From positions 1 through 53,904 of IMG/VR virus record IMGVR_UViG_3300034022_000969: DNA of 53,904 nucleotides; one strand, written 5' to 3'. Both the position numbers and the translations under genes were made by a program. Source of the DNA: a virus (Duplodnaviria; Caudoviricetes). Of the stretch, positions 4,146 to 40,782 are shown piece by piece (the first letter of the stretch is position 1; the number at the start of each line of letters is the position of its first letter). The notes below the pieces were generated by a model. The model saw only the letters and a program-made list of their open reading frames with translations, was not told the origin of the DNA and did not search any database.

Positions 4146-4262
4146 TTGTCTGAATGGTGGGTGGGATTCTGCTGGGGAGGTGCGACCGCGACGAGCATTA
4201 TGCTTGGCGCGGCCATTGCATTGGTGAGATGGCTAAACAGCAACGTAGGACCACGATTTTGA
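4146..4262 (+). CDS. Small single-TM peptide (38 aa, not in ORF track): MSEWWVGFCWGGATATSIMLGAAIALVRWLNSNVGPRF
   Basis: GGAGGTGA RBS before a TTG start; stop overlaps the next start (TTGA). Confidence 0.55.
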   Translation: MSEWWVGFCWGGATATSIMLGAAIALVRWLNSNVGPRF

Positions 4263-4915
4263 AAACTGAAAGTCGATTACAATTTCCAACATGGCAGGAA
4301 TTGGCGTTTGTCTGCGTTCTCATGGTATTGATCGCGACAATTGTGATTTTGGCAACGGGATCACCGCAACGATTCGTAGCACCCGAGCCAGTGGAAAGTC
4401 CGATCGTCGAGCAGATTTCCGAAGTCGAGTTGCTCGAGATTGGCGGCGGCGAATTTGGCGACGATACGAACGGTCCTTATGGAGTGTTGCCACCCAGGGC
4501 CGGGACGGAATGGGTCAAGAAGTTTGAGCAAACTAAACGGGTCAGGGTAAAAACGTTTCCGCTGTGCGAGGGCTGCGGACGGACCCCTGACGATTTGGGA
4601 CGTTACCCTGACCAGCACCACAAGGTTTCGGTTTATCGGATCATCACGGAAAAACTTGATGAGTCGCTGCTGTGGGACGAAGCGAACCTAATCTCGCTGT
4701 GCAAGACGTGTCATCAGCAGTACGGTCACCCGGATGGGTGGGCTACGTCAAATCCGGATGTGGAACGTGATGCCAAGGGGGCGTTCAAACAGTGTCAGGG
4801 GATATCCTACGCGGCGGCGGTTACCGAGTGGCGAGCCAAGCAGCCGACTCCAGCCACGCTGACGAAGGATAGGCGACGATCAAACCGTGAGAGCAAAACG
4901 ACAGTTATCCCGTGA
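4259..4915 (+). CDS. HNH endonuclease-like protein with N-terminal TM anchor
   Basis: CEGC...QHHK...NLISLCKTCHQQYGH; TM LAFVCVLMVLIATIVILA; start placed at the coupled TTG (alternative ATG 4229). Confidence 0.75.
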   Translation: MKTESRLQFPTWQELAFVCVLMVLIATIVILATGSPQRFVAPEPVESPIVEQISEVELLEIGGGEFGDDTNGPYGVLPPRAGTEWVKKFEQTKRVRVKTFPLCEGCGRTPDDLGRYPDQHHKVSVYRIITEKLDESLLWDEANLISLCKTCHQQYGHPDGWATSNPDVERDAKGAFKQCQGISYAAAVTEWRAKQPTPATLTKDRRRSNRESKTTVIP

Positions 4916-5161: not shown

Positions 5162-5453
5162 AACTGGAGTGGATGCTGCAGGGTTGGCAGCGGGTGCCAG
5201 TGCGTTGCTGAATACCGGGGCTACGCTTTGGTTTTTCTATTACTGTCACACCGTCACGTTGCCCGAGCAGCAAAAGCAATCTCGCGAACTGATGAGGGAA
5301 AAAGACGTTGCTCACGCTGCGGAGTGTGACAAGCTGCGAGATATTTTCGCTGACCAGCTGAAAGAAGCACGGTTGGAGCGGGAAGCGATCGTGAATGAGC
5401 TACGAGCGAATCGCGAAGCATTTGAACGGTGGAAAAACGAACATAAGGCGTAA
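5142..5453 (+). CDS. TM + coiled-coil protein (holin-like)
   Basis: N-terminal hydrophobic segment, charged helical C-terminus. Confidence 0.6.
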   Translation: MLSILAETGVDAAGLAAGASALLNTGATLWFFYYCHTVTLPEQQKQSRELMREKDVAHAAECDKLRDIFADQLKEARLEREAIVNELRANREAFERWKNEHKA

Positions 5454-5457
5454 CAGC

Positions 5458-5811
5458 ATGAGATTCCGTCGAGCGTTCGAATGGTTCAGCGAGTTCTGCG
5501 GAGTCTGTTTAGGGTGTGGCCTGCTGTGGTGCCACTTGCGGATCGTCATGCTCGAAGAAAGAATTCATTGGCTTGAGACGATCGAGCCCAAGCAGGCGAT
5601 TCAAAACAATAATCAACAAGTGTTTGTTGAAGATCCACGCAACGAACTCATTCGCGAAATCGCGACTCAGAACGGATGGAAACCCGATGTCAACCGGACC
5701 AATGACCCCGCCAAGCAACCTGCCAGCAAACCCGCAGCTGGCCCCGCCAAACAATCCGAGCCGGGCACGTTGTCTCGAAATACAGGCGGCACTGGAGCGA
5801 ATCCGAAATGA
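5458..5811 (+). CDS. TM + coiled-coil hypothetical protein
   Basis: FCGVCLGCGLLWCHL hydrophobic segment, then polar tail. Confidence 0.55.
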   Translation: MRFRRAFEWFSEFCGVCLGCGLLWCHLRIVMLEERIHWLETIEPKQAIQNNNQQVFVEDPRNELIREIATQNGWKPDVNRTNDPAKQPASKPAAGPAKQSEPGTLSRNTGGTGANPK

Positions 5812-5956
5812 GCGGATCCGGCTGGTGGCGGCGGTCCAGATTGCCCAGGCGACTGTGATTGCGGCTCAGCGGGATGTCGAGGGCAACATGAATGCGGAGT
5901 GCGTGTTGCTGGGTGAGGGGTATCAGCTGGGGTGCAATTTGGGGACGGGATCGTAA
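5687..5956 (+). CDS. Hypothetical coiled-coil protein overlapping the previous gene
   Basis: Pro-rich N-terminus, then amphipathic helix. Confidence 0.45.
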   Translation: MSTGPMTPPSNLPANPQLAPPNNPSRARCLEIQAALERIRNERIRLVAAVQIAQATVIAAQRDVEGNMNAECVLLGEGYQLGCNLGTGS

Positions 5957-5967
5957 TCATTGGTAGG

Positions 5968-5996
5968 TTGACATTATGCACACTGGCGTGTATAGT
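5968..5996 (+). promoter_or_regulatory. Near-consensus sigma70 promoter with overlapping palindrome; probably a leaderless transcript
   Basis: TTGACA-17-TATAGT; ATG 6003 lies 7 nt past the -10; TATGCAC-N6-GTGTATA imperfect palindrome over spacer and -10. Confidence 0.8.
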
Positions 5997-6002
5997 GATG
6001 GC

Positions 6003-6200
6003 ATGAGCTGGTCAGAGTACATTCGCGATGCAGTCAAAAAGAGCGGCAAAACTACCTATAAGATTGCCGTGGAGTCTGGCGTTCCGGTCCAAACTGTGGA
6101 TCGGTTTATGGCTGGGGCGGATGCGAAATTGTCGACAGCGGAAAAAATTGGCCAGGTGGTGGGCGTGGAGGTGACCGATGGCAGAGTGGCCGGGGAGTGA
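6003..6200 (+). CDS. XRE/Cro-like HTH regulator
   Basis: SGKTTYKIAVESGVPVQTVDRFMAG...LSTAEKI HTH pattern. Confidence 0.85.
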   Translation: MSWSEYIRDAVKKSGKTTYKIAVESGVPVQTVDRFMAGADAKLSTAEKIGQVVGVEVTDGRVAGE

Positions 6201-6900
6201 TGAGCTGTGTCAGCAGGTGGCGTCGACTACCTCGGACAGCTGCGTGCTGATGTTCTCGCGCGGTAAGGATGCCGTGGGGGCGTGGCTGCAGTTGCGGCGA
6301 TTTTTCAAGCGGATCGAGCCGGTGTTCTTGTACCTTTGCCCGGACCTGTCGTTTGAGTTCGAGTCGCTGAAATACTATGAGGATTATTTTGGCCAGAAAA
6401 TCCACCGACTTCCGCACCCGAGTTGCTACCGACTTCTGAATGCGGCTGCGTTTCAAACTCGATGGGGCGCTGAGGCCGTGTGGGAACAGCAGTTGCCGAA
6501 TTTTGCCTACCGCGATGTGCAGCAGGTAATAATCGAGGATTGCGGTCTGGATGCGATCACCCAGGCGGCTGTGGGTGTGCGGGCCTGCGACTCGATGATG
6601 CGGCGCGTGTCGATCAAGACCCATGGGCCGTGGTCTCGTCGCAAGGGCGAGTTTTTTCCGATCTGGGACTGGAATGCCGAGCGATTGCGGCAGGAATTGA
6701 GGGCCGCGAAGGTCAAGTTGCCGGTCGATTATGAATGGTTTGGTCGGTCGTTTGACGGGATCGATCGCCGATTTACCGAGCCGTTGCGGCGGCACAGTCC
6801 AGCGGATTTTCAGAAACTCAAGGCCTTTTTTCCGTTGATTGAGGCTGATCTCAAACGGTATGAATTCAATGGGAGGCGTCATGGCCAAAAAGCAAACTGA
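6178..6900 (+). CDS. PAPS-reductase-like PP-loop (adenine nucleotide alpha-hydrolase) protein
   Basis: FSRGKDA PP-loop, GVRACDSMMRR, FPIWDW; no C-terminal ECGLH. Confidence 0.8.
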   Translation: MAEWPGSDELCQQVASTTSDSCVLMFSRGKDAVGAWLQLRRFFKRIEPVFLYLCPDLSFEFESLKYYEDYFGQKIHRLPHPSCYRLLNAAAFQTRWGAEAVWEQQLPNFAYRDVQQVIIEDCGLDAITQAAVGVRACDSMMRRVSIKTHGPWSRRKGEFFPIWDWNAERLRQELRAAKVKLPVDYEWFGRSFDGIDRRFTEPLRRHSPADFQKLKAFFPLIEADLKRYEFNGRRHGQKAN

Positions 6901-7282
6901 GCTGCGGCGGCAACTGGATTCGCTGAGTGATGAGGATCTGGCTGCATTGCTGGCCAGTATGCCGGTCGATGTGCCCGCCGAGACTGGCGAGGTGCAGTCG
7001 AAAAAAGAGCTATCCGAGACCCTGAAAGCCATCGCTGGCCGACAGAAGATCGAGAAAGAGCGGCGTGATGCTGCGACAGATGGCGAATTCTGGGCTCAGC
7101 TGATTTTCGACAGCAAGATCCAGCGTGATGCCTTTTTTGCGGGGCTGGCTGCGTCGCATCTGCTGGAGGATCAGTGGGTGGATGGTATAGCCTTGGCAGA
7201 GCACCTGCAGATAGAATTGCCACCGAGTCCGGTGTTATCGAGCGGTGAGCCGACAACCGCGTGGAATGAATTTGTCGGCTAG
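6881..7282 (+). CDS. Hypothetical partner protein of the PP-loop enzyme
   Basis: GGGAGG RBS before ATG 6881; overlaps the upstream gene. Confidence 0.75.
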   Translation: MAKKQTELRRQLDSLSDEDLAALLASMPVDVPAETGEVQSKKELSETLKAIAGRQKIEKERRDAATDGEFWAQLIFDSKIQRDAFFAGLAASHLLEDQWVDGIALAEHLQIELPPSPVLSSGEPTTAWNEFVG

Positions 7283-7296
7283 GAAGGGGTGAAATC

Positions 7297-7368
7297 ATGA
7301 GAGGTCGATCGGGAAGTGGGTTTGGAAAAGGGACGACGGCTGGTGCTCGCAAGCTTTCGGGGAGCTGA
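7297..7368 (+). CDS. 23-aa basic Gly/Ser-rich micropeptide MRGRSGSGFGKGTTAGARKLSGS
   Basis: AGGAAGGGG RBS; fills the gap between 7282 and 7373; below the ORF-track cut-off. Confidence 0.6.
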   Translation: MRGRSGSGFGKGTTAGARKLSGS

Positions 7369-7372
7369 GTGA

Positions 7373-7894
7373 ATGGATCGTGACGCCGTTTTGAACCGAT
7401 TGAATTCGTTGCTGGCGGCCAAGCGGTCCGGGACGCAACCAGTGGAACAACCTGCTGGGCAAAACACGGATCTGACTTCCTCCCCGGTTACTCCTAGCGG
7501 GGGGCTGGGGAGGAGAGTTAGGCTGGAGGGCTCGCAGCTGACCGCGATCAAGGAAGCGCGGATGCTGGCCAGGGCGGTGAAGTGGCAGGATAAGCTGCGG
7601 TATCCTGTCGATATGACTCAGTCCGAGATTGAAGATCAGGTTGCGGAACGAGGTGAACCGCTACTGGCCGAACAGATCGCGATTGCGTCGTTCGAGCTGA
7701 TGAACGACTGGGACGGTCGGAACAAGTTGATTGGCATGCGGGCCGGGATGGACATGATCCGCACCGTGCAGGCTGATGACCACGCAAAAGAGCGATCGTC
7801 TGGCGGCGATGTCAACGTGAACATCGGCGATCAATACGTGCTTGTGCTGCCTCGGAACGGGCGGGAGTCAACGGCAATTGAGAAAGCTCCTTGA
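7373..7894 (+). CDS. terS: Terminase small subunit (putative)
   Basis: Directly upstream of and overlapping TerL; C-terminal YVLVLPRNGRE typical of TerS tails. Confidence 0.65.
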   Translation: MDRDAVLNRLNSLLAAKRSGTQPVEQPAGQNTDLTSSPVTPSGGLGRRVRLEGSQLTAIKEARMLARAVKWQDKLRYPVDMTQSEIEDQVAERGEPLLAEQIAIASFELMNDWDGRNKLIGMRAGMDMIRTVQADDHAKERSSGGDVNVNIGDQYVLVLPRNGRESTAIEKAP

Positions 7895-9278
7895 GCCTCA
7901 CCCAGGTCCGCAGACTGCTTTCCTTGAGACCGAAGCCGACATTGCTTTGTACGGTGGTCAGGCCGGGGGCGGAAAGTCGTGGGCGCTGATTGCCGAGGCA
8001 TCTCGCAATATCGCAGACCCAAATTATGGGGCGGTGATTTTTCGCCGAACTTCTCCGCAGATCACGAACGAGGGGGGGCTTTGGGACGAAAGTTCTAAGC
8101 TGTTCCCGCATCTCGGGGGGTCGCCAAACCAAGCGTCACTTGACTGGCGATTTCGCAGCGGGGCGAACATTGGTTTTCGGCATTTACAGTACGAGACGAG
8201 CAAGTTGGCGTGGGCTGGTGCGCAAATCGCAATGATCGGGTGGGATGAGCTTACGCACTTCACCGAGTCGCAGTTTTGGTTTTTGATGTCGCGTAATCGG
8301 TCGACATGCGGAGTGCCGCCATACGTTCGAGCCACTACGAACCCAGTCCCTGCGGATGATCCGATTGGTGGGTGGGTCAATCTGTTGGTTTCTTGGTGGA
8401 TTGATCAGAAAACAGGGTTTGCGATTCCCGAGCGGTCTGGCGTGCTGCGTTGGTTCATTCGTCGCCAAGGGGAAATAATCTGGGAAGACAATCCGAAGGA
8501 TTTATTCGAAAAGTACCGTATTCAGAACCTGCCAGATAATCACGAGGACCAGCCACGGCCGAAATCGTTTACATTTATTAGCGCGAAACTCAGCGACAAT
8601 CCGACGCTGATTCGGATAAATCCCGGATATCGTGCAAACCTGCTGGCGTTGCCGGAAGTCGAAAAACAACGGTTGGCCGATGGCAATTGGAACGCCAAGC
8701 TGCAGGCCGGACTGTTTTTTAAGGTCGGTCAACTGAAGCCTTGGCCGTCGACGGAACTGCCCGCATCGGGTTGGCGATTCTGCCGAGCGTGGGACCTTGC
8801 CGCGACAGACGGGGCGGGAGACTGGACCGTTGGGGCGAAGATCGGGGCTGGGCCGGATGGGCAGTTCATTATTGCCGACATCGTGCGGGGCCAGTGGGAG
8901 AGCAACTATCGGGACAAGATCATCAAGCAAACGACCGCAGCGGACGGGGTTGGGTGCTCGGTCTGGGTTCCGCAAGACCCTGGTGCCGCTGGGAAATCTG
9001 AGGCGTCGCGAATCGTGGGGATGCTGGCCGGGCACACCGTGAAGAGGGAGACAGAGACCGGCGACAAGGCGACTCGGGCGACGGGGTTTTCCTCGCAGGT
9101 CAACGCGGGGAACGTTTGGATTATGCCTGCGGCGTGGAATCACGGGCTGACGCAACGGATGGATGCATTCCCGACGAAAGGGGTGCCAGACGACGAAATT
9201 GACTCAATGGCACATGCGTTTGTGCAGGTTTCGACTAAGATTGACCTTGGTGCTTGGTTGGAAAAGGGAGCGTTTTGA
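7878..9278 (+). CDS. terL: Terminase large subunit
   Basis: YGGQAGGGKS Walker A, IGWDELTHF Walker B, RATTNP, RAWDLA and DDEIDS nuclease motifs. Confidence 0.95.
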   Translation: MRKLLEPHPGPQTAFLETEADIALYGGQAGGGKSWALIAEASRNIADPNYGAVIFRRTSPQITNEGGLWDESSKLFPHLGGSPNQASLDWRFRSGANIGFRHLQYETSKLAWAGAQIAMIGWDELTHFTESQFWFLMSRNRSTCGVPPYVRATTNPVPADDPIGGWVNLLVSWWIDQKTGFAIPERSGVLRWFIRRQGEIIWEDNPKDLFEKYRIQNLPDNHEDQPRPKSFTFISAKLSDNPTLIRINPGYRANLLALPEVEKQRLADGNWNAKLQAGLFFKVGQLKPWPSTELPASGWRFCRAWDLAATDGAGDWTVGAKIGAGPDGQFIIADIVRGQWESNYRDKIIKQTTAADGVGCSVWVPQDPGAAGKSEASRIVGMLAGHTVKRETETGDKATRATGFSSQVNAGNVWIMPAAWNHGLTQRMDAFPTKGVPDDEIDSMAHAFVQVSTKIDLGAWLEKGAF

Positions 9279-38348: not shown

Positions 38349-39497
38349 CTAATTTGTAGGGGTTGGAGGTTTGAACGCTGCTGGTGTTACCTTTTCTGTT
38401 ACCCTCGTTTGAACTGACCACAACGCTGCGGCTGTCTGCTGAGCGTCTTGGCCGACGTAGTATTTCATGGTGGTTGACACGTCACGGTGACGCATCAGAT
38501 CGCGTAACACGACTGGTAACACTCGTTTGCTCCAACGGGTGCCAAACGTCCTGCGGAGGTCGTGCGCTGAAGCGTACTTCTTTCGGCGATGGTCAACAAC
38601 GATTCCAGCCGTCTCGCCGAACGCCGAAATCGTTCTGCTGATGTTCGTTTCGTTTGTGATGGGTTGACCACGTTCTCCGATGGGAGCGAATACGCGGCCT
38701 GTGCGATGCTCGATCGGAGTACGCAGCAGCCAACGGCCAAAGTCCGGGGTGATCGGTAACAGCCGATGCTCACGGCCTTTGTCGTCCTCGGCGTCGATTT
38801 CCAAAAGCGGGTATTCGCCTGCCAAGTTGATTCTCGGGGCGGTGGGATCGTCCCAGGAGAGCGACACGGCTTCGGACAGGCGAAGACCGCTGAGCCATAG
38901 ACCGTACAGCAAGTGCCGCCACGATGCGATTTGCTGGGGCTGGACCACCTTTCCAACGGCGGAGAGCAGGCGAACAAACTCGAACAGGGTCAGGTCACGG
39001 CCTTTTACCTTGCGGCCTGAGACCTCACGCGACTTGGGGAACGTGGGGACCGTCGAGGTGTAGCCTTGCTCCTGCGACCACTGCAACGCGCAACGGATGG
39101 CGATGATGTGGCCCCTGATCGTGGATTCGGATTTCTTCTGGCCACGCAGCTGGGAGACGTATTGAGCCACTACCGATGTGTTGATCGAGGAGAGCTGCGC
39201 GGGTCGCATCGTTTCTGTGAAGACCTTCAATTTGCTGAGGTGCCAACGTTCTGTTGCCGATTCCAAGCCCGACAGGTGCCGGATTTGATAAAGATCTTGG
39301 AACGACTCCCAGGGCATTGCACCGTCACCGGAGGCCTGCGTCTCGTTGAGGTGTTTTTCCAGATCAGACGCGGCTCGTTCCGCCTTGCCACGGGTGGTGC
39401 ATTTGGACGATCTCGTGCATTGCTTGCCGGTGGTCGGGTCACGCCAGCGAAGGGCTAAGAATTTCCGGCCGTAATCGATCACATAGACCCTGATCAC
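38349..39497 (-). CDS. int: Tyrosine integrase
   Basis: SGLRLSEA, DKG, AHDLRRTF, MRH, TTMKYY catalytic motifs; N-terminal arm-binding and core-binding regions. Confidence 0.95.
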   Translation of the reverse strand: MIRVYVIDYGRKFLALRWRDPTTGKQCTRSSKCTTRGKAERAASDLEKHLNETQASGDGAMPWESFQDLYQIRHLSGLESATERWHLSKLKVFTETMRPAQLSSINTSVVAQYVSQLRGQKKSESTIRGHIIAIRCALQWSQEQGYTSTVPTFPKSREVSGRKVKGRDLTLFEFVRLLSAVGKVVQPQQIASWRHLLYGLWLSGLRLSEAVSLSWDDPTAPRINLAGEYPLLEIDAEDDKGREHRLLPITPDFGRWLLRTPIEHRTGRVFAPIGERGQPITNETNISRTISAFGETAGIVVDHRRKKYASAHDLRRTFGTRWSKRVLPVVLRDLMRHRDVSTTMKYYVGQDAQQTAAALWSVQTRVTEKVTPAAFKPPTPTN

Positions 39498-40486: not shown

Positions 40487-40690
40487 ATGACTCCATTTTT
40501 GATCTTCGGATTGGTCTTGTTTTGCTGCGGTGGCATGTGTTTGGTTGGCTGGGGGCTCCATGAATTCAATCCGATCAACGAGATCATGGAGGAAGTGACC
40601 GGCGTGGTCGAATTGCCGAAGGAGTCGGCGAGTTATTCCACCCGGTCTCGTAGTGGGATAGAGCAGCCAGGTAGCTCGCGAGGTTCATAA
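40487..40690 (+). CDS. Small TM protein (3' end overlaps the tRNA)
   Basis: Hydrophobic N-terminus FLIFGLVLFCCGGMCLVGWGL. Confidence 0.45.
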   Translation: MTPFLIFGLVLFCCGGMCLVGWGLHEFNPINEIMEEVTGVVELPKESASYSTRSRSGIEQPGSSRGS

Positions 40691-40725
40691 CCTTGAGGTC
40701 GCAGGTTCGAATCCTGCTCCCACCA
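40652..40725 (+). tRNA. tRNA-Met(CAT), initiator-like; CCA not encoded
   Basis: A-GTGGGA/TCCCAC-C-A acceptor with 1:72 mismatch, GAGC/GCTC D-stem, CGAGG-TTCATAA-CCTTG, GCAGG-TTCGAAT-CCTGC. Confidence 0.93.
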
Positions 40726-40782
40726 TTTTCCAAAAGCGCGGGGGGTCTGCGTGGAAAATCCGTTGATACAAGGATGTAAACC

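Follow-up and report, generated by a model that had tools for sequence, protein, structure and literature searches.

A conserved three-gene module of phages is described here from one locus and its relatives. The starting point is the IMG/VR record IMGVR_UViG_3300034022_000969 (Duplodnaviria; Caudoviricetes), a complete 53,904-bp virus genome with direct terminal repeats at its ends, which was analyzed over its full length and is called the window below. On its + strand lie, in order, the genes for a 240-amino-acid (aa) PP-loop enzyme of the 3'-phosphoadenosine 5'-phosphosulfate (PAPS) reductase-like clade (6178..6900), a 133-aa helper protein of an unnamed family (6881..7282) and a 23-aa peptide rich in Arg, Gly and Ser (7297..7368). 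The enzyme and helper genes overlap by 20 nt and 14 nt separate the helper gene from the peptide gene. The first-pass annotation of the window, made from its sequence, had reported three tightly packed genes behind a small helix-turn-helix (HTH) gene, and the three open reading frames (ORFs) lie where it placed them, with the enzyme motifs SRGKDA, GVRACDS and PIWDW all present. The same combination recurs in phages by the hundred, across many bacterial phyla, as a module with three parts: the PP-loop enzyme, a helper of about 135 aa whose gene usually overlaps that of the enzyme, and one or two protamine-like peptides. In most of the loci examined this trio stands at the head of the terminase operon, whichever terminase family is encoded there.

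Relatives of the enzyme are encoded by 404 viral contigs and at 130 places in a collection of bacterial and archaeal species genomes. The main locus set consisted of 84 loci, namely the best 80 of the 404 viral contigs, the window and three GenBank phages, and these were clustered at 80% enzyme identity into 51 phage clusters. A second set consisted of 80 loci from bacterial genomes. Prophage relatives occur in Bacteroidota, Pseudomonadota, Verrucomicrobiota, Bacillota and Actinomycetota, and also in Myxococcota, Planctomycetota, Desulfobacterota and Acidobacteriota. The trio is also present in cultured phages. For example, Pasteurella phage Pm86 encodes it as ORF51, ORF52 and two unannotated peptides, and Gordonia phage Cafasso as gp166, gp167 (the helper domain, with an hhalign probability of 98.5%) and gp168 (a 49-aa peptide). 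It is found in addition in Cutibacterium phage CA1NRNZ and Bifidobacterium phage BigBern1. Literature searches, with supplementary gene tables outside their reach, gave no account of the trio or of its helper and peptide families, and the trio appears to be undescribed.

The PP-loop enzyme and its helper

A large protein collection holds 367 enzyme relatives of similar length, and no fused or longer forms turned up among the relatives, which is weak evidence. The PP-loop of the window enzyme reads S27-R-G29-K30-D31 and is followed by GVRACDSMMRR and PIWDW. Seven residues, S27, G29, K30, D31, G133, D138 and R142, are invariant in 75 aligned relatives, so that the S-x-G-K-D loop behind the original assignment to the PP-loop enzymes is kept throughout. 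The canonical PP-loop motif is SGGxDS-like and binds the phosphates of ATP. We take the S-x-G-K-D loop to resemble that of the ATP-using CysD and flavin mononucleotide (FMN) adenylyltransferase, unlike the degenerate loop of CysH. After strand 4 the enzyme has G-V-R-x-x-D-S-x-x-R, a likeness to CysH, CysD and FMN adenylyltransferase, and this segment presumably corresponds to the motifs of CysH and CysD.

The window enzyme has no match in Pfam at an expectation value (E) of 0.1, and none in NCBIfam or PADLOC. It therefore falls short of the PAPS_reduct family PF01507 at that threshold, and 15 of the 75 relatives match this family at E ≤0.01 (best 1e-6). On these profile comparisons the enzyme family is a divergent branch relative to PF01507. 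A match was obtained to phrog_2302 ('PAPS reductase', E 1.3e-17), spanning positions 27-267 of the 381 in the profile. The search of the enzyme profile against PDB sequences gave only a spurious match (E 0.92).

The AlphaFold model of the enzyme, with a predicted local distance difference test score (pLDDT) of 96 and a predicted template modelling score (pTM) of 0.90, has the Rossmann-like alpha/beta fold of the PAPS-reductase-like clade together with the PP-loop motif. The top Foldseek matches of the model are TilS, TtuA, guanosine monophosphate (GMP) synthetase and CysH, with E from 4e-6, and in a further fold comparison flavin adenine dinucleotide (FAD) synthase and CysH ranked above others. 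Cysteine reaches at least 50% in no alignment column of the 75 relatives. Thus, both CysH-type chemistry and the Fe-S-dependent chemistry of the TtuA and DndC type are unsupported, and the first-pass opinion that the enzyme does not serve sulfate reduction is borne out. The window enzyme does contain a mid-protein EDCGLD (6535..6552), a chance look-alike of the CysH motif ECGLH that is not kept in the relatives.

When the 133-aa protein was used as a tblastn query, 42 of the 80 viral loci showed a helper downstream of the enzyme. With an iterated helper profile, all 84 loci had it as the next same-strand ORF after the enzyme, with an overlap or a gap of at most 8 nt, and it was present in all 80 of the bacterial-genome loci as well. 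The helper profile found 1788 representative clusters among 1.84 billion proteins, nearly all of them 115-180 aa long. In the longer relatives the helper domain is duplicated in tandem, with no added Pfam domain. P0127, P0213, P0230 and P0235 are duplications of this kind, 247-308 aa long, with no other Pfam domain. The helper had no match in Pfam, PHROGs, NCBIfam or PADLOC and no fold match, and its model consists mostly of long helices (pLDDT 87, pTM 0.45).

Arginine-rich micropeptides with a conserved C-terminus

The third gene of the window encodes MRGRSGSGFGKGTTAGARKLSGS, which ends in ...ARKLSGS. As reported by the first-pass annotation, it is preceded by a putative ribosome-binding site, the Shine-Dalgarno-like AAGGGGTG at 7284..7291 on the + strand, which ends 5 nt before the ATG at 7297. 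In most loci, one or two short Arg-rich ORFs lie in the stretch from the helper gene to the long ORF that comes next. The peptides of this family are 23-56 aa long, have about 21% Arg and an isoelectric point (pI) of about 12, and end in a tail close to R-[S/T]-S-G-[S/T]-stop. The ends seen include ...RSSGS, ...RSSGT, ...RTSGS, ...RASAT and ...RSSST, a pattern which the window peptide fits. Further features common to the aligned peptides are MR(G/N) at the start and, about 12 residues before the end, an S/G-R-R motif. The first-pass annotation had raised the case of homologous loci lacking the micropeptide; this is not what was found, as short Arg/Ser/Gly-rich ORFs with a conserved C-terminus are present there.

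The micropeptides had to be identified by a motif rule. A tblastn search with the 23-aa window peptide gave no match because the query is too short. A profile hidden Markov model (HMM) of the peptides reached at least 12 bits in 12 of 44 held-out clusters, while the best of 32 control loci reached 10.7 bits; the HMM was insensitive, and the motif rule was therefore used instead. The strict form of the rule accepted ORFs of 18-75 aa with a net basic composition and R or K at positions -5 to -7, in which the last four residues came from S, T, G, A, N, Q, L and I, at least two of these being S or T, and the final residue was S, T or A. The zone of interest comprised the 740 nt that follow the helper gene, and here 33 of 248 small + strand ORFs passed the strict rule, representing 29 of the 51 clusters, compared with 16 of 4433 elsewhere in the loci, and on the opposite strand of the zone no ORF passed.

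A stop-anchored form of the rule was satisfied in 30 of the 51 phage clusters, with 0.94 matches per kb in the zone and 0.034 per kb elsewhere. In held-out prophages from the bacterial genomes it was satisfied in 21 of 40 clusters (0.78 per kb in the zone, 0.050 elsewhere), and over 32 loci that have a related terminase but no enzyme the density was 0.040 per kb. The enrichment of the strict motif in the zone is thus 16- to 27-fold over the rest of the loci. When either the strict or a lax rule was accepted, a peptide was found in 40 of the 51 clusters, with two copies in seven of these, and 47 of the 4433 small ORFs outside the zone passed.

Evidence that the peptides are genuine protein-coding genes came from 39 of them, which had been chosen for having the tail. 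Because of this selection, it is the spread of codons and not the residues themselves that serves as evidence. The Ser at position -3 is encoded by AGY in 14 and by TCN in 20 of the 39 peptides; all four Gly codons are used in the tail, and the tail Arg is encoded by CGN in 19 and by AGA in six. Judged by these codons, the tail is conserved as amino acids, not as DNA. In addition, a Shine-Dalgarno-like 4-mer precedes 26 of the 39 peptides, compared with 418 of 3362 (12.4%) control small ORFs in the same loci. Pairs of close relatives, which are not independent of each other, showed 31 synonymous versus nine non-synonymous codon differences.

Cys is found in one and Asp or Glu in 11 of the 39 peptides, a composition that argues against reactions of the lasso-peptide or lanthipeptide type. 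The one conserved handle on the peptides is the tail. Three to five extra, mostly basic residues follow ...SGS in the peptides of loci L083 (3810..3917, - strand), L084 (2219..2320, + strand) and L179 (SKRRK, IHR, QVKR). Such additions hint that in some lineages cleavage may expose the tail.

Packaging context and proposed function

The position of the trio was compared across both locus sets. Of the phage clusters, 44 have a long downstream ORF, and in at least 42 of these the first such ORF encodes a large terminase; at least four Pfam families are represented, namely Terminase_6N (25 of 44), Terminase_3 (15), TerL_ATPase (one) and GpA (one). Two of these 44 ORFs have intein splicing domains and one has a LAGLIDADG domain. 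In the prophage set the first long downstream ORF is a terminase in 27 of 35 clusters. Some of the ORFs at the small-terminase position match small-terminase PHROG families, of which there are many, with up to 12 of 49 for any one family. In 32 loci whose terminase is 33-46% identical to that of the window, the enzyme and helper are absent and no convincing peptide is found ahead of the terminase. The position of the peptide gene can also vary: L035 and L131 have it upstream of the enzyme gene, L128 and L140 kilobases away, and L178 on the converging strand. Since the enzyme-less loci show no convincing peptide, many terminase families are involved and the peptide gene is movable, we assign the peptide, on balance, to the enzyme-helper pair and the trio as a whole to packaging.

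Our working model, which is put forward as a tentative reading and somewhat short of probable, is that the enzyme adenylates the peptide tail, the helper presents that tail, and the product acts at packaging. The enzyme would bind ATP through its intact S-x-G-K-D loop, the helper would present the peptide, and the AMP would be moved by the enzyme onto the tail, either at the C-terminal carboxylate or at the hydroxyl of the terminal Ser/Thr. The activated or modified peptide could then be joined to, or act on, a target at the time of packaging, and phage DNA would be a plausible target in view of the peptide charge and the gene position. A bolder form of the model, in which the adenylated protamine-like peptide is joined covalently to phage DNA (e.g. 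at genome ends or packaging sites) or to another target before packaging, is regarded as quite unlikely; if true, phages of many phyla would use a gene-encoded peptide to cap or mark their genomes, which would be a mechanism of a new kind. When enzyme, helper, 23-aa peptide and ATP were co-folded, the peptide score was 0.00, which weighs neither way; the tool is uncalibrated for chains of fewer than 30 residues.

Several observations weigh against adenylation of the peptide. The known ATP-using members of the clade, CysD and FMN adenylyltransferase, adenylate sulfate or phosphate, not peptides. A rule-passing downstream peptide is missing from 11 of the 51 phage clusters, and about six of these also have no variant recognizable by eye. 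The variants among the 11 include L035, with a typical peptide immediately ahead of the enzyme gene, CA1NRNZ, with an annotated 35-aa gene, and BigBern1, with three residues added to the tail. The extended tails of the BigBern1 and L179 peptides depart from the fixed end, and the peptide gene of CA1NRNZ, with five extra residues after ...SSSGS, has the orientation of the small terminase gene and diverges from that of the enzyme. The motif was defined on the phage set, and the held-out set reproduces it, but some loci of the two sets may be related. The helper was considered as an acidic chaperone for the basic peptides; the window copy has a net charge of -10, whereas the median over the family is -1, a value that spurious N-termini from the chosen ORF starts may affect. 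With a median near zero, the simple acidic-chaperone picture fails as a general rule. Finally, binding of the peptide by the enzyme and its modification are predictions, and the role of the peptide may be RiPP-like (ribosomally synthesized and post-translationally modified peptide), tag-like or nucleic-acid-modifying.

The same packaging position and the protamine-like composition of the peptides would also suit modification of a nucleic acid at packaging, the chief alternative to our model, which we consider rather unlikely. The enzyme would then adenylate phage DNA (or RNA) and the peptide would be a DNA-binding or targeting subunit, or the attached group itself, e.g. through its terminal Ser/Thr hydroxyl. 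The match to phrog_2302 is consistent with this, as the trio would parallel the IbrA/IbrB-type cassettes, whose partner is ParB-like, and TilS, TtuA and MnmA, to which the enzyme is structurally related, act by adenylating nucleobases. Lactobacillus phage LR1 (locus L198, 2950..4866) also points in this direction. There, a distant enzyme relative with 26% identity precedes a basic 141-aa protein (C-terminus ...KGSSGKSSG), a ParB-like 'nuclease' and the terminase genes, so that the 141-aa protein and the nuclease replace the helper and peptide; LR1 may be an intermediate linking the trio branch to the ParB-partnered IbrA/IbrB-type cassettes. However, family and fold searches found no DNA- or RNA-binding domain in the enzyme or helper, a peptide spent once per modified site would be costly unless the sites were few, and a limited literature search gave no modified base known for the trio phages. 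It is also conceivable that the peptide serves packaging independently of its neighbours, e.g. by condensing DNA or as a cofactor of the small terminase, and is no substrate of the enzyme and helper. Its gene is usually directly upstream of the small terminase gene, with which it is oriented in CA1NRNZ, and its composition is basic. This proposal is judged improbable: the enzyme-less loci with related terminases show only the background density of the motif, the peptide accompanies many unrelated terminase families and precedes the enzyme gene in L035 and L131, and a five-residue tail that is kept while the rest of the peptide varies suggests that a specific partner recognizes it.

Auxiliary sulfur metabolism is the role that existing annotation implies and that some papers take for granted. 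The enzyme is annotated as a 'PAPS reductase' in Pm86, CA1NRNZ and LR1, and prophage copies are treated as sulfur genes in the available part of a preprint (bioRxiv 10.64898/2026.02.18.706556). A PAPS reductase is nevertheless very improbable here, as the relatives have no conserved Cys and thus no ECGLH-type catalytic cysteine, the ATP-type S-x-G-K-D loop is retained, the window protein falls short of PF01507, and the enzyme has a constant helper, a usual peptide and a neighbourhood of mostly terminase genes. Whatever likelihood is left goes to other roles such as defence or counter-defence, for which no supporting PADLOC match was found.

The trio matters for several reasons. Phage 'PAPS reductase' genes are routinely filed as auxiliary genes of sulfur metabolism, and the branch described here lacks the catalytic cysteine and is found with a helper and an unannotated micropeptide at the packaging operon. 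It is a concrete and testable system, present in cultured phages, and it could reveal a new chemistry of peptide or nucleic-acid modification tied to packaging. In addition, routine annotation overlooks a whole family of small phage genes.

Related systems and flanking features of the window phage

The trio is a PP-loop enzyme cassette at the terminase with a logic of enzyme, helper and gene-encoded peptide, and parts of this logic are found in several known systems. IbrA/IbrB (YbdN/YbdM) has an enzyme of the same superfamily, as seen from the phrog_2302 match. However, the window enzyme is short and lacks the C-terminal extension covered by that profile, its partner has no detectable ParB likeness, and a conserved peptide is part of the trio. 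Lasso-peptide machinery consists of an asparagine-synthetase-like PP-loop cyclase, a peptide-binding helper and a ribosomal peptide. The trio follows the same logic, in which one or more short peptides are encoded beside an adenylating PP-loop enzyme and its small helper, but its PP-loop clade is a different one, no protease gene is present and the context is phage packaging. Moreover, only the 11 peptides with Asp or Glu have a residue that could be the acceptor, and the conserved part is the extreme C-terminus. In RiPP clusters a short precursor peptide, often in several copies, is encoded beside its modifying enzyme. A peptide is encoded close by in 40 of the 51 clusters, and in two or more copies in seven; as its modification is a prediction, the trio is a candidate RiPP cluster.

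In microcin C (MccA/MccB) and in TtuA/TtuB, small gene products have C-termini that are activated or used by an adenylating enzyme. These systems resemble the trio in that a short product with a fixed C-terminus of small residues is encoded beside an adenylating enzyme, and TtuA is among the structural matches. However, MccB is E1-like and not a PP-loop enzyme, and the trio tails end in Ser/Thr instead of Asn or Gly-Gly. Compared with the TtuA/NcsA thiolases and their TtuB carrier, the Fe-S cysteines are not conserved in the trio enzymes, and peptides of 23-56 aa are too short for a beta-grasp fold. CysH, CysD and FMN adenylyltransferase share the motif after strand 4, but the trio enzyme has no sequence-level match to solved structures, and its partners and genomic context are different; from CysH it differs further in lacking the catalytic C-terminal cysteine (ECGLH). 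DndC and BrxP of the bacteriophage exclusion (BREX) type 4 system, which belong to DNA phosphorothioation, have conserved cysteines or an Fe-S region and dnd or brx genes nearby; they differ from the trio enzyme, which has no conserved Cys, no PADLOC match and mostly terminase genes as neighbours.

Downstream of the trio in the window, the next gene begins 5 nt past the stop codon of the peptide gene and encodes a 173-aa protein (7373..7894, + strand), which is a putative small terminase subunit by position only, with no family match. It is followed by the large terminase subunit (7842..9278, + strand; Terminase_6N E 3.3e-19, phrog_979 E 3.5e-137) and then by portal and head-morphogenesis genes. 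The first-pass annotation had described the trio, its HTH gene and promoter as a self-contained cassette. No terminator-like site was found after the peptide gene and the next gene is only 5 nt on; therefore, it is no self-contained unit and instead forms the start of the packaging operon. Ahead of the terminase genes is an HNH endonuclease gene (4154..4915, + strand; phrog_144 E 3.8e-7). The pairing of HNH and terminase genes is common in cos-type phages.

The promoter reported ahead of the HTH gene was recovered as a sigma-70-like TTGACA-17-TATAGT (5968..5996, + strand) with 11 of 12 consensus matches. A scan of 5300..8000 (2.7 kb) gave two promoter-like sites, compared with 0.8 +/- 0.9 in shuffled sequence. 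The HTH gene (6003..6200, + strand) encodes 65 aa and overlaps the enzyme gene by 23 nt. Its ORF stands, and its assignment as an XRE-type HTH protein is weak (Pfam HTH_3 E 0.0054, under the cut-off; phrog_9425 E 1.6e-5). The proposal that it is leaderless fits the geometry, with a -10 element that ends at 5996, six bases before the ATG at 6003, and leaves no room for a ribosome-binding site; the transcript start is a prediction, and the gene is best called a candidate leaderless one. The palindrome said to lie over the -10 element was not recovered: no inverted repeat was found at seed 6 and length 8, and only 4-bp ACAC/GTGT arms occur in the spacer. A palindromic operator at the promoter was accordingly dropped as a candidate. 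By tblastn, the HTH gene is found in none of 80 related loci, so that neither it nor the promoter, which is peculiar to the window phage, is counted in the conserved module. Both would merely happen to precede the module in this phage.

A link between the enzyme and tRNA-CAU through TilS had also been suggested, and it is not upheld. TilS is one among many PP-loop structures with tied scores, and the tRNA gene is 33 kb away beside the integrase gene. This complete tRNA-Met(CAU) gene (40651..40726, + strand) lies about 1.1 kb from the integrase gene (38349..39497, - strand; phrog_1 E 4.4e-27). With an integrase gene beside tRNA-Met(CAU) in a terminally repeated genome, the window phage is probably temperate.

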